Source: Microgenomates group bacterium
GTDB taxonomy: Bacteria; Patescibacteriota; Microgenomatia; UBA1400; MFAQ01
NCBI GenBank assembly: GCA_049303575.1
Contig: JBAQNH010000002.1
Location: 180,717-244,716, forward strand
Reading direction: 5' to 3'
DNA length: 64,000 nt
Made by a program: the position numbers and the translations under genes. Every line of letters starts with the position of its first letter. Positions within the stretch are counted from its first letter, which is position 1. Shown here piece after piece: positions 12,985 through 35,146 of the stretch. The notes below the pieces were generated by a model. It made no database searches. It worked only from the letters and a program-made list of their open reading frames with translations, and was not told the DNA's origin.

Positions 12985-14915
<1,931 letters not shown>

Positions 14916-14978: not shown

Positions 14979-15541
14979 ACCCCGTACAACCTACAACTGG
15001 AGCGAAGCGAAGTTGTACGGGGGTGAAGAGCACAGACTAACACACGAAGTGTGTTAATCTGTCATCATGGAAGCCAGAAGTTTGAATCACTCGGTTTACT
15101 ACCATCAGTATCACGTTGTGTGGGGTACGAAGTACAGGAGACAGTATCTCCAGGAGTACGTAAAGAAAGCCTTTGAAATATATGTCAAACGAGTAATATC
15201 TAAGTACCCCACAATTCAACTAATCAAGGTCAATACGGATATTGATCATGTTCATCTACAACTTTCAATACCGCCTAACATGGCTGTCTCACGGGTGGTG
15301 CAGAAGGTGAAACAGGAGACAAGTAAACTCCTCAAGAAAAGATTTAAGTTCATTCGAGAAATCTATCCCTTCGAGGGTATCTGGAGTGTTGGGTACTTCT
15401 CCTCAACCATCGGGCTGAATGAGGAAACTGTCACGCGGTATATCGACAGTCAAGGGAAGAGAGACAAGGGGAGACAGTACAAACTCTGGCTCCCATGATG
15501 CCGCCAAAGGAAACCCCGTACAAGCAAAGCGTAGTGCGGGG
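14979..15541 (+). mobile_element. IS200/IS605-family insertion sequence (tnpA only) with subterminal hairpins; boundaries approximate
   Basis: Left hairpin CCCCGTACAAC-(21 nt)-GTTGTACGGGG (14980-15022) and a second hairpin AACACAC-gaa-GTGTGTT (15038-15056) upstream of tnpA. Right hairpin CCCCGTAC-(9 nt)-GTAGTGCGGGG (15514-15541) downstream. Both ends share the CCCCGTACA arm, the arrangement expected for Y1-transposase IS. Confidence 0.65.
15067..15498 (+). CDS. tnpA: IS200/IS605-family Y1 (HUH) transposase TnpA
   Basis: 143 aa; YHQYHVVWGTKYRRQYL (IS200 N-terminal signature), HUH motif HVHLQLSIPP, catalytic-Tyr region GYFSSTIGLNEETVTRYIDSQ. Confidence 0.85.
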   Translation: MEARSLNHSVYYHQYHVVWGTKYRRQYLQEYVKKAFEIYVKRVISKYPTIQLIKVNTDIDHVHLQLSIPPNMAVSRVVQKVKQETSKLLKKRFKFIREIYPFEGIWSVGYFSSTIGLNEETVTRYIDSQGKRDKGRQYKLWLP

Positions 15542-17427: not shown

Positions 17428-18513
17428 ATGGTTAATTTTTCGATTAATGGTTTTGGAAGGATCGGACGCTCCGCCATGCGTGTTTGGCTTCATAATCACC
17501 TTGAAGATGCCAATCTTGTCGCCATCAATACTTCCGGTTCCCAAAACGTCGCCAGTTGGGCTTATCTTCTCCGTCACGACACTGCCTACGGCACCCTTCC
17601 CTATTCCGTCTCCTCGGAGGAAGTTCAAGACCCCAAGGATGCTTCGGATGCCAAACCAATCATTGGCTATATCACAATTGAACACCCCAAAAAAACGCTT
17701 AAAATCCCTGTTCTTGCTCAGCGTGACCCAGCCAAAATTCCCTGGGTTCAATTTGGCGTCGAGGTCGTTATCGAGTCTACCGGAGCCTTTACCAGTCTAG
17801 ACAAAGCCATTCTTCATCTCCAGGGAGGCGCCAGATTCGTTGTTCTTTCTGCTCCGGCCAAAGGTGGAGGTGTGCCTACGGCTGTTTTAGGTGTCAACGA
17901 CCAAGACGTTATTACCAAAGATCGCACCGGCACACTTTCTGTGATTAGCAACGCTTCATGCACCACTAACAGTGTTGCCCCCGTAGCCGACATCCTTCAC
18001 TCCAAGATTGGCATTCTCAAGGCTATGCTCACCACAGTTCATGGCTACACCGATGACCAAAACCTCCAAGATAACTCTCATCGTGATCTTCGCCGTGCTC
18101 GTGCCGCCGCCCAAAATATTGTGCCTACTTCCACCGGAGCTGCCGTTGCTGCCACTCAGGCCATTCCCGAACTCCAGGGACTTTTTGATGGTATCTCCCT
18201 TCGCGTTCCTGTCATCACCGGTTCTATCACCGACTTTACCTTTGTCACTCGTCGCTCCACTTCCATTGAAGAAGTAAACCAAATTTTTATGGATGCCGCC
18301 AATGATCCCAGATATCGTGGTATTTTAGCCGTGACCGACGAACCCTTGGTTTCCTCCGATATTATTGGCCGTTCGGAATCTAGTATCGTTGATCTCGAAA
18401 TGACTCGTGTCGTCGACGGTACCTTAGTGAAAGTTCTCGCTTGGTATGACAACGAATGGGGTTATGCCAATCGTCTTATTGAGGAAGTCATTAAGGCTGG
18501 CGATCTCTACTAA
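17428..18513 (+). CDS. gap: Glyceraldehyde-3-phosphate dehydrogenase
   Basis: INGFGRIGR, ASCTTN active site, WYDNEWGY. Confidence 0.95.
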   Translation: MVNFSINGFGRIGRSAMRVWLHNHLEDANLVAINTSGSQNVASWAYLLRHDTAYGTLPYSVSSEEVQDPKDASDAKPIIGYITIEHPKKTLKIPVLAQRDPAKIPWVQFGVEVVIESTGAFTSLDKAILHLQGGARFVVLSAPAKGGGVPTAVLGVNDQDVITKDRTGTLSVISNASCTTNSVAPVADILHSKIGILKAMLTTVHGYTDDQNLQDNSHRDLRRARAAAQNIVPTSTGAAVAATQAIPELQGLFDGISLRVPVITGSITDFTFVTRRSTSIEEVNQIFMDAANDPRYRGILAVTDEPLVSSDIIGRSESSIVDLEMTRVVDGTLVKVLAWYDNEWGYANRLIEEVIKAGDLY

Positions 18514-18517
18514 AATT

Positions 18518-18548
18518 AAGGACGGAGAGGGAATCGAACCCTCGCGTG
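18518..18548 (-). pseudogene. Inverted partial copy (T-arm plus 3' acceptor, roughly 30-50 nt) of the tRNA-Cys gene. On the + strand it folds as a hairpin with a T-run directly after the gap stop codon.
   Basis: Minus-strand reading ...cacGCGAGGGTTCGATTCCCTCTCCGtcct matches 19396-19422 of tRNA-Cys with 2-3 mismatches. The + strand reads GAGGG-aatcgaa-CCCTC ... TTTTT. Confidence 0.55.
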
Positions 18549-18567
18549 GAGGTTTTTGCGGATAACA

Positions 18568-19269
18568 TTATCCATTTCTATCAAGATATGCAGAATATTT
18601 ATCACATTTGTATTTCAAGAATGGGGCATGGATAATGTCTCGGTAAATAAATTCTGAAACCATGATCGCATTTCTCCAGTTATATCTCAGTTTATAGGCC
18701 CCGTATCCATAAGAGATCGAACTCTTGATTTCTGGAAAAACACTCATAATTTTTGTTGTTAATTGTTCAAGAAACATTTTACTTCCACTCGTAAAAATAA
18801 TATTCATCCTATTCTTCTTGTTTTTCTCAATGTTGATACACCCATCTCCGTCAAAATAGCCTCGAAGGAAATATTCAAAATATTTGTTAGGTATTTCCGG
18901 TAATTTGATGACTAACGATTTTCTTGGACACAATCCTATTTTAACCAGGTCATCATAAATTTTTTTGTTTCCTATTCTGACACGATACGATGTCTTACAC
19001 CAATATTCTTTCTCTCGAATTTTAATTTTTCGAGGACCTCTTTTCTGGATTATTTGCTTAGTAGACATGGCGGCCATCATATCTTTAAGAATATCTAAGT
19101 CGTTATTTGCTAACAATATATAGCATGCCCTCGAAGATTCTCTACAATCTTCAACTGCTCCATCAGCATAAATAAATCCCAAAACGTAAGCCATTTTTGG
19201 TGACCACTTTTTAAAAAAGTTTTCATCAACCTTTTTTCTGTTATATCCACCTCTTTTGTCTTGTTCCAC
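18568..19269 (-). CDS. LAGLIDADG-family homing endonuclease (two LAGLIDADG motifs), free-standing
   Basis: Motif 1 YVLGFIYADGAV and motif 2 FLRGYFDGDGCI. GTG start at 19269. Confidence 0.8.
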   Translation of the reverse strand: MEQDKRGGYNRKKVDENFFKKWSPKMAYVLGFIYADGAVEDCRESSRACYILLANNDLDILKDMMAAMSTKQIIQKRGPRKIKIREKEYWCKTSYRVRIGNKKIYDDLVKIGLCPRKSLVIKLPEIPNKYFEYFLRGYFDGDGCINIEKNKKNRMNIIFTSGSKMFLEQLTTKIMSVFPEIKSSISYGYGAYKLRYNWRNAIMVSEFIYRDIIHAPFLKYKCDKYSAYLDRNG

Positions 19270-19274
19270 AATTT

Positions 19275-19303
19275 ATTATTACCAAACAAAACCCAAATGT
19301 CAA
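19275..19303 (-). promoter_or_regulatory. Putative promoter of the homing endonuclease gene (TTGACA -17- AATAAT), giving a leaderless transcript
   Basis: Minus-strand TTGACA (rc of 19298-19303), 17-nt spacer, AATAAT (rc of 19275-19280), start codon 5 nt downstream. Confidence 0.45.
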
Positions 19304-19350
19304 TGATTTATATCAACCCTTTTGATAAATGATAAAATAGTGCCTGAAGT

Positions 19351-19422
19351 GGCCGGATGGTGAAGAGGAAACACGATTGTCTGCAAAACAATCATGCGAG
19401 GGTTCGATTCCCTCTCCGGCCT
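19351..19422 (+). tRNA. tRNA-Cys (anticodon GCA)
   Basis: Manual cloverleaf: acceptor GGCCGGA/TCCGGCC, U8, D-arm GTG-AAGAGGAAA-CAC, anticodon stem ATTGT/ACAAT with loop CTGCAAA (GCA), T-arm GAGGG-TTCGATT-CCCTC, discriminator U73 (a Cys identity element). CCA is not encoded. Confidence 0.8.
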
Positions 19423-19471
19423 CAATATTTCATGTTCGACATCTTGACATAATCTGCTATCATAGACACAA

Positions 19472-20353
19472 ATGAAGACAAACTTATTCAAGCTCTTTGC
19501 TCTCCTTATTTTTTCTGTTTTTCTTGCCGGATGCAATCTTAATCCCTTCGCCAAAAAAGCCGGTATTCAAGTTACCTCTAGTCCCGAAGCTAATGTGATG
19601 ATAAACGGCGAGTCCGTAGGCAAAACTCCCGTATATATCGACAACAAAAAACCAGGTTCCTACACTGTCCAAATGACGGCTGTTGATAGCGGTCAAACCT
19701 GGGAAACCAAAGTTGATCTTCTTGGTGGTACTTTGACTACTGTTCACCGTGAATTTGGTGAAACTCTGGACAAATCTCACAGCTATACTCTTTCCTTTGA
19801 AAAACTCAGTAACAATAAAGCTGCCGCAGTCAGTATCGTTAGTCTCCCCGCCAGTGCCACAATAAGTATCGACGGCAAACCGGAAGGCTTTTCCCCTAGA
19901 AGTATTGATATTGAACCAGGTCCTCACGTCTTTACTTTTACCAACCCCGGCTATCAAGATAAAATAGTTAATGCTTCAGTTCAGGCTGGATATCGTCTAG
20001 TTTTAAACTTCACCATGTCTGCTCTCGACATAACTCCAACGCCCACTCCTACCATTGCCACTCCCTCGGCAGCCCTTGTTACCCCCACCCCCGCCAAAAC
20101 TGTTACCCCTCTTCCCAAGCAAGCAACTTCTTCAGCAACCATAGCTAAACCCTACGTTGAGATTCTCTCAACCCCAACAGGTTGGTTAAAGGTTCGCGAA
20201 ACAGCTTCAACAGAAAGTAATGAGTTGGCTAAGGTCAACCCCGGTGATGTTTTCCCCTACAAAGAATCCACAACCTCAGGCTGGTATCAAATTGAATACA
20301 TCAAAGGCTCTTGGGGATTTGTCTCCTCCACTTACGCCAAGCTGGTTAAGTAA
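19472..20353 (+). CDS. Lipoprotein with PEGA-like repeats and C-terminal SH3b domain
   Basis: Signal peptide with lipobox LAGC, two PEGA-like segments, a Thr/Pro linker, and C-terminal GWLKVRETAS...GWYQIEY (bacterial SH3-like). Confidence 0.55.
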   Translation: MKTNLFKLFALLIFSVFLAGCNLNPFAKKAGIQVTSSPEANVMINGESVGKTPVYIDNKKPGSYTVQMTAVDSGQTWETKVDLLGGTLTTVHREFGETLDKSHSYTLSFEKLSNNKAAAVSIVSLPASATISIDGKPEGFSPRSIDIEPGPHVFTFTNPGYQDKIVNASVQAGYRLVLNFTMSALDITPTPTPTIATPSAALVTPTPAKTVTPLPKQATSSATIAKPYVEILSTPTGWLKVRETASTESNELAKVNPGDVFPYKESTTSGWYQIEYIKGSWGFVSSTYAKLVK

Positions 20354-34927: not shown

Positions 34928-35001
34928 CCGGGTGTAGCTCAATTGGTTAGAGCAGCTGCCTATTAAGCAGAGCGTTGGGAGATCATTCCTCCCCACCCGG
35001 A
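34928..35001 (+). tRNA. tRNA-like gene with noncanonical anticodon loop (CUAUUAA, formal anticodon AUU) and noncanonical T-loop; possible pseudo- or specialised tRNA
   Basis: Acceptor CCGGGTG/CACCCGG (7 bp), U8-A9, canonical D-arm GCTC-AATTGGTTA-GAGC, anticodon stem GCTGC/GCAGA (one G.A mismatch) with loop CTATTAA, T-stem GGGAG/CTCCC with loop ATCATTC (not TTCRANN), discriminator A. Confidence 0.45.
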
Positions 35002-35146
35002 CACCAATTAAGTCGCGCTATTCAGAACAAAGCCATCATTCAATGTACTAATTAACTATATTGACATGGTACACCCAATGTCAAGTCATAGTTCGACGAG
35101 ATTCTAGCATTTATATCAAAATGTTTCAATAAAGGATATTAATGCC

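Follow-up and report, generated by a model that had tools for sequence, protein, structure and literature searches.

Most known free-standing homing endonucleases come from phages and organelles, whereas LAGLIDADG enzymes of bacteria are known from introns and inteins. The enzyme SegB of phages T4/T6 is a free-standing GIY-YIG homing endonuclease encoded within a phage tRNA gene cluster. It recognises a site that includes the conserved T-psi-C stem-loop of tRNA genes and causes the linked tRNA region to be inherited preferentially, replaced and amplified (PMC2330249, PMC13096335). Intronless homing has also been described for SegF, SegG, MobE and F-CphI, which are free-standing phage endonucleases (PMC2988022, PMC2790892, PMC6083498). 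The LAGLIDADG endonucleases described in CPR bacteria reside in insertions of 16S or 23S rRNA genes, mostly group I introns, and are mostly single-domain proteins of the LAGLIDADG_1 or _2 type; the paper makes no mention of tRNA (PMC11270868). A survey of tRNA introns in Patescibacteria reported HNH rather than LAGLIDADG genes, and these only inside introns (PMC13011429). Full-text searches of the searchable literature returned no description of tRNA-linked free-standing LAGLIDADG genes in bacteria.

The window (the whole stretch of 64,000 nucleotides analysed here) originates from an uncultured groundwater bacterium of Candidatus Collierbacteria (Microgenomates, CPR). It contains a homing endonuclease gene (HEG) beside a tRNA-Cys gene, in the following arrangement (window coordinates, strand and supporting evidence):

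17428..18513, plus strand: gap (GAPDH), the conserved right-hand flank (ORF and synteny in L002, L004, L009 to L039)
18512..18556, minus strand: relic of the resident tRNA-Cys gene, from the anticodon loop to the 3' end plus a 6-nt trailer (inverted repeat, synteny, allele)
18568..19269, minus strand: free-standing monomeric two-motif LAGLIDADG homing endonuclease gene, 233 aa (Pfam, alignment, AlphaFold2, dN/dS)
19275..19303, minus strand: HEG promoter TTGACA-17-AATAAT (11/12 consensus, conserved in relatives)
19324..19350, plus strand: GATAAATGATAAAATAGTGCCTGAAGT, a block ahead of the tRNA gene that includes the -10-like box TAAAAT (conservation in relatives)
19351..19423, plus strand: intact tRNA-Cys(GCA) with U73 (ARAGORN, Rfam, cloverleaf fold, allele comparison)
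19472..20353, plus strand: PEGA/SH3 lipoprotein gene, the conserved left-hand flank (Pfam PEGA and SH3_3), which adjoins tRNA-Cys syntenically in Collierbacteria and Woesebacteria

The HEG ORF starts with GTG, encodes 233 aa and contains the motifs MAYVLGFIYADGAV and YFLRGYFDGDGCI, as is characteristic of a monomeric two-motif LAGLIDADG homing endonuclease. It matched Pfam LAGLIDADG_3 with 47.6 bits (cut-off 22.5), while NCBIfam gave no meaningful match and the sequence likeness to any solved enzyme was marginal (profile E 0.003). The AlphaFold2 model (pLDDT 89.6, pTM 0.88) showed an order of secondary structure elements that fits two tandem alpha-beta-beta-alpha-beta-beta-alpha domains. Its best PDB matches were I-Tsp061I, I-DmoI and I-SceI, and the top matches were all LAGLIDADG enzymes (Foldseek E 3e-9 for I-Tsp061I and ~6e-7 for I-DmoI; TM-scores of 0.62-0.69, normalised to target length). 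The protein is thus predicted to adopt the two-domain DNA-binding saddle fold. In an alignment of 35 homologues with 41-80% identity, the catalytic residues D36 (YVLGFIYADG) and D142 (LRGYFDGDG) were invariant. Pairwise dN/dS values against relatives of 0.07-0.21 indicate that the HEG is under purifying selection; UbiA values were set aside from this comparison as alignment artefacts. Among ~92 complete copies (96 loci with a relative), only that of L129 was degenerate (truncated). Neither of the defects named in the initial annotation as counter-evidence, a degenerate ORF or the loss of a catalytic Asp, was found in this intact and selectively constrained gene. The exact HEG of the window was encountered elsewhere only on a contig of 916 nt (L001).

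The gene had been annotated as lying outside any intron or intein, and this was borne out: Rfam searches detected no group I or II intron around the ORF, either at the gathering threshold or at E<=1, and no host protein is interrupted. The HEG possesses its own promoter and start codon and is bordered by a tRNA gene on one side and by the end of gap on the other. The promoter (19303-19275, minus strand) agrees with the consensus at 11/12 positions and is followed 5 nt past the -10 box by the GTG codon, so that the HEG mRNA is probably leaderless. Both hexamers and the distance to the ATG or GTG codon are kept in relatives down to 45% protein identity, in line with the near-consensus promoter and leaderless transcript proposed previously. 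The spacer TTTGGGTTTTGTTTGG (19281-19297, minus strand) is conserved in relatives down to about 45-55% protein identity, which exceeds the need of a spacer; it could represent an operator, for instance for autorepression by the endonuclease.

The tRNA-Cys(GCA) gene at 19351-19422/3 (plus strand) was called by ARAGORN, scored 63.7 bits in Rfam and yielded a cloverleaf as centroid fold (z = -2.9). The T directly after the acceptor stem gives rise to U73, in agreement with the initial annotation. It is a non-canonical allele, with GTGA/CAC as D stem and GATTG/CAATC as anticodon stem, and is inverted relative to the ancestral orientation. The block GATAAATGATAAAATAGTGCCTGAAGT was inverted jointly with it and precedes the tRNA in both orientations among relatives; this block, which the promoter scan did not report, presumably acts as the tRNA promoter.

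The tRNA gene and the sequence following gap form an inverted repeat with arms at 18512-18556 and 19385-19429 (45 nt, 84% complementary), including a perfect 23-nt core. A chance origin of the core was rejected (~1e-8 expected in 1.4 kb), which confirms the inverted partial tRNA-Cys copy noticed after the gap stop. On the minus strand, the copy begins 6 nt past the HEG stop, covers the tRNA from its anticodon loop to the 3' end together with the next 6 nt, and finishes 3-4 nt from the gap stop. It sits at the position and in the orientation of the intact tRNA-Cys gene of HEG-less relatives. Moreover, the 3' strand of its anticodon stem reads CCTCC, as in the HEG-less alleles L012 and L032, whereas the adjacent tRNA has CAATC. 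By its position, orientation and allele, the copy is therefore a relic of the resident tRNA-Cys gene. The initial annotation had regarded it as a partial duplicate of the neighbouring tRNA and as the scar of a homing or recombination event; it does mark an insertion, but allele and ancestral position contradict a duplication of the neighbour. The additional role assigned to it, that of a hairpin plus T5 terminator for pgk-gap, lacks support, as the terminator scan found none at the copy on the plus strand and its fold was no better than that of shuffled sequence (z = -0.42).

For comparison with relatives, 62 loci were retrieved from species-representative genomes, using a conserved glycosyltransferase gene 3 kb away as anchor. 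Twenty-five of them, including every Woesebacteria outgroup, contain a PEGA gene, tRNA-Cys and gap or M23 without a HEG (type A), with the tRNA-Cys gene in the orientation of the window's partial copy and likewise abutting gap. The empty sites whose search had been suggested earlier hence exist in many relatives, and the order PEGA / tRNA-Cys / gap without HEG is the ancestral state. The window and 10 further loci carry an inverted tRNA and the HEG (type B), six loci an inverted tRNA without HEG (type C), and L013 and probably L010 a tRNA in the ancestral orientation followed by the HEG (type D). One type C locus, L012, retains the DNA that elsewhere precedes the HEG, with a decayed -35 box in it, and thus reflects a secondary loss of the gene. 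A neighbour-joining tree built from three proteins of the flanks showed the four types interspersed among close relatives, amounting to a presence/absence polymorphism at one homologous site. The HEG is cleanly absent from at least 13 related species, and its presence is patchy in sister lineages. Inverted-repeat recombination was rejected as the source of the two arrangements, since the predicted isomer, with the HEG reversed and the tRNA beside gap, occurred in no locus.

The interval between tRNA-Cys and gap is a general hot spot for small gene insertions. The larger spacers of HEG-less relatives were inspected for HEG pseudogenes, but their inserts proved to be unrelated genes (YkuD-type transpeptidase, LigT-like, Ham1-like and others). 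A decayed ORF for a 2H-phosphoesterase (LigT-like) lies between HEG and gap at 4706-5321 of L004 (= L011), and an intact copy occupies the spacer of the HEG-less locus L018 (9546-10104). L030 and L039 contain a gene for a YkuD-type transpeptidase there, and L032 one that is Ham1-like. In L005 (4749-6296, minus strand) and also in L006-L008, the tRNA relic behind the HEG is directly adjoined by a gene for a large serine recombinase; the gap-pgk synteny beyond it is replaced by unrelated genes, so that an integrated element probably used the same spot. L023 (15057-15196) and L155 (~2185-2333) share an insert of ~140-150 nt with the T-arm-like sequence GTTCGATTCCC and a strong terminator hairpin, bordered by direct repeats that correspond to the terminal 19-20 nt of tRNA-Cys and start in the T loop. 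The insert had no match in Rfam and is a second kind of insertion at tRNA-Cys. Several assemblies break in or beside the tRNA-Cys/HEG unit (L010 at 14304-14316; contig ends in L016, L017, L021 and L026), as would be expected if repeats or allele mixtures confuse assemblers.

Elsewhere in the window, an IS200-like Y1 transposase gene (15067-15498, plus strand; Pfam Y1_Tnp, E 1e-28) marks the end of synteny with the closest genomes (L033, L009). A tRNA called as Asn with the unusual anticodon ATT (34928-35002, plus strand; ARAGORN, Rfam 54.8 bits) has an atypical T arm, GGGAGATCATTCCTCCC, and is bordered by the 11-nt inverted repeats CTGAATAGCGC and GCGCTATTCAG.

Relics of tRNA 3' ends, co-oriented with the HEG, follow its stop codon in at least five lineages (WIN/L033, L005-8, L074, L153 and L155) and probably also in L078, at a distance of 0-6 nt in most lineages and ~75 nt in L155. 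In all five clear lineages, the relic differs from the adjacent intact tRNA. The relics of four lineages start at A58 in the T loop (ATTCC...), whereas that of the window reaches back to the anticodon loop. Upstream of the HEG, no 5' tRNA relic was found, and the sister subfamilies described below lacked relics except for an inverted 3' relic in L098. The alleles of the intact genes also varied with the presence of the HEG: the canonical D stem GCGA occurred in none of 20 HEG-linked tRNA-Cys genes but in 13 of 17 HEG-less Collierbacteria (Fisher p = 7e-7, without correction for phylogeny). This pattern fits linked tRNA alleles that are resistant to cleavage, short of proof, while L012, which lacks the HEG yet carries a canonical tRNA allele, does not conform to a simple model of this kind. 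The pointers to a target site also diverge, in that the relic boundaries point to the T loop (four lineages) or the anticodon loop (window) and the alleles to the D and anticodon stems.

Two close relatives document that the HEG has a history of its own. Compared with the window, L009 (Collierbacteria GW2011_GWA2_42_17) has flanks of ~90% nucleotide identity, while the body of its HEG is only 54-72% identical (64% at the protein level) and the D and anticodon stems of its tRNA-Cys differ. Conversely, L033 has flanks that are ~91% identical to those of the window, but the 3' two-thirds of the HEG and the relic are 98-100% identical, with a dS of 0.078 for the HEG versus 0.20-0.47 for neighbouring genes. 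HEG alleles have consequently been exchanged or replaced independently of their flanks, and the history of the gene is discordant with that of its neighbours at both loci. Over longer distances, HEG identity mostly tracks host identity, so that much of the inheritance is vertical. Identical tRNA alleles accompany HEGs of only 67-78% identity in the pairs L016/L017 and L011/L015, which shows that the two are not always transferred jointly and rules out strict co-transfer. Phage relatives reach at most 32% identity, leaving no evident phage vector.

Scanning metagenomes with the protein alignment yielded 80 loci with 32-62% identity, and in 72 of these a tRNA gene lies within 200 nt of the HEG. 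In the subfamily of the window, the HEG is located just downstream of tRNA-Cys, in either orientation. Every member with readable upstream DNA (41-100% identity) abuts tRNA-Cys, and the PEGA/tRNA-Cys/gap locus is occupied down to 43% identity. In a second subfamily, the HEG precedes tRNA-Cys by 14-120 nt, and tRNA-Leu comes next; in a third, it lies between tRNA-Met and tRNA-Asp. The eight exceptions include two genes that precede a group I intron and one that precedes an archaeal SRP RNA and a tRNA. In the former (L144 and L147, 3684-3894), the intron (Rfam 57.8 bits) is located directly downstream of the HEG relative and probably belongs to an intron-bearing tRNA-Asp; in the latter (L128, 3711-4136, an archaeal contig), the relative lies upstream of the SRP RNA and an intron-bearing tRNA. 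None of the sampled relatives is situated inside an rRNA gene or an intron. The close paralogues in rRNA introns for which a search had been suggested were thus not encountered, and nearly all sampled relatives are free-standing and tRNA-adjacent. The HEG belongs to a large and apparently undescribed family tied to particular tRNA genes.

Taken at the level of sequence, these comparisons establish that the gene is functional and mobile, that empty sites exist and that the relic stems from a resident gene of another allele. We consider it probable that, in Candidatus Collierbacteria and their relatives among the Microgenomates, the gene is a functional free-standing LAGLIDADG HEG of the single-copy tRNA-Cys locus, where it would spread as follows. 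The endonuclease would be produced from its own leaderless promoter and would cut HEG-less tRNA-Cys genes; the relics and allele patterns point to the tRNA-Cys gene as its target. Repair from an occupied allele would then introduce the HEG along with the tRNA-Cys gene closely linked to it, so that the cell would stay supplied with this essential tRNA. In the lineage of the window, the incoming block would have inserted into the resident tRNA-Cys gene, at that time convergent with gap, and its right-hand junction would have formed non-homologously at approximately the anticodon loop. A junction inside the resident gene would leave the 3' part of the latter as a relic right after the HEG stop. 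The inversion of the intact tRNA relative to the relic would remove a direct repeat able to delete the HEG, a possible advantage.

Domestication, a decayed tRNA intron and an integrase footprint were weighed as alternatives to homing, and all are weaker. A domesticated LAGLIDADG protein that no longer homes but serves the host, for instance as a DNA-binding regulator of the tRNA-Cys locus or as a repair or recombination factor, would be inherited vertically beside the tRNA gene. The low dN/dS of the HEG (0.07-0.21), the intactness of 91 of the ~92 complete copies, the conservation of promoter and spacer to 45% identity, the use of the same syntenic locus from 43% to 100% identity and a divergence that roughly follows that of the neighbouring genes would all suit such a protein; a single degenerate copy is also fewer than predicted by a purely selfish cycle of gain, decay and loss. 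Domestication is nevertheless unlikely, given that the HEG is dispensable (absent from at least 13 related species and patchy in sister lineages), that its alleles are replaced and exchanged independently of the flanks, that both catalytic Asp residues are invariant and that relics of a different tRNA allele mark insertion events.

A very unlikely origin is a group I intron in the anticodon loop of tRNA-Cys that once contained the HEG and whose ribozyme decayed, together with the 5' exon, after a second tRNA-Cys gene had taken over. Group I introns are common in the anticodon loops of Patescibacteria tRNAs (PMC13011429), the distant relatives L144 and L147 adjoin an intron-bearing tRNA, and the HEG does lie directly 5' of a co-oriented tRNA 3' part, which in the window starts at the anticodon loop. 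However, intron RNA was undetectable even at E<=1, a 5'-exon relic is absent, and only 6 nt separate the HEG stop from the relic, with ~80 nt upstream of the HEG. The HEG also has its own conserved promoter, the relics of other lineages start in the T loop instead of the anticodon loop, and no sampled relative is located inside an intron. Integrated elements typically leave 3' tRNA duplications, and the partial tRNA could in principle be the att-site duplicate of an element integrated at tRNA-Cys, with the HEG as cargo or bystander. The serine recombinase gene that abuts the relic in L005-L008, where the downstream synteny is replaced, and the small insert of L023 and L155, whose direct repeats match the terminal 19-20 nt of the tRNA, are in keeping with integration at this site. 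For the window, this explanation is the most improbable of all. There is no recombinase gene in or near its tRNA-Cys/gap interval, where gap follows directly, and the HEG is the only inserted gene. An att duplicate would form a direct repeat with the intact tRNA, but the copy is inverted, and the relic is a different allele at the ancestral position. Among all 13 Collierbacteria HEG loci, an att-like HEG-relic unit with a recombinase is absent except in L005-8.

Beyond homing as such, we tentatively propose that these elements act as 'tRNA replacement cassettes', in which a LAGLIDADG HEG and its own cleavage-resistant essential tRNA overwrite the resident gene. They might then constitute a natural gene drive of tRNA alleles in CPR bacteria, with sister subfamilies specialised on other tRNAs (upstream of tRNA-Cys/Leu and between tRNA-Met and tRNA-Asp). 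Such cassettes, although somewhat less probable than not, would explain why the stems and the orientation of tRNA-Cys vary among close relatives. If homing at tRNA-Cys takes place as outlined, the cellular chromosomes of genome-reduced CPR bacteria would harbour a large family of tRNA-specific HEGs, and an essential single-copy tRNA gene could be overwritten without an intron, because the element brings the replacement. It would also account for the diversity of tRNA alleles, the gene inversions and the assembly breaks at the tRNA-Cys locus, and it would open up a pool of meganucleases that are compact, monomeric and directed at new, naturally conserved targets.

Among the described enzymes, I-Tsp061I and I-DmoI, which are monomeric and archaeal, share the two-motif single-chain architecture and the Pfam LAGLIDADG_3 domain with the HEG of the window. 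The identity to them is only 15-18%, and both are encoded by introns in rRNA genes, whereas the HEG is free-standing, has its own promoter and lies beside a tRNA gene. The endonucleases of CPR rRNA-gene insertions stem from the same host radiation and enzyme superfamily and have highly conserved stable-RNA genes as targets, as is proposed for the HEG; the HEG differs from them in being two-domain, outside any intron and tRNA-linked. As an intergenic HEG next to a conserved, putative target gene, it resembles SegF, SegG, MobE and F-CphI, which spread by break repair with co-conversion of flanking markers. These are phage enzymes of other families; in the window, it is an essential cellular tRNA gene that would be co-converted, and a relic of the putative target persists. 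Functionally, the HEG comes closest to SegB: it too is free-standing and tRNA-linked, replacement of the resident tRNA allele is proposed for it as well, and several of the relic boundaries in its family fall in the T loop. The HEG does not belong to the SegB type, since its catalytic domain is different (LAGLIDADG only in Pfam, as opposed to GIY-YIG). Furthermore, SegB acts in a phage genome and shows no isotype preference, whereas the HEG resides in a bacterial chromosome and its family is strictly associated with tRNA-Cys (sister subfamilies with tRNA-Met/Asp). By analogy, the HEG of the window may work like SegB and, if so, would be its cellular LAGLIDADG counterpart.
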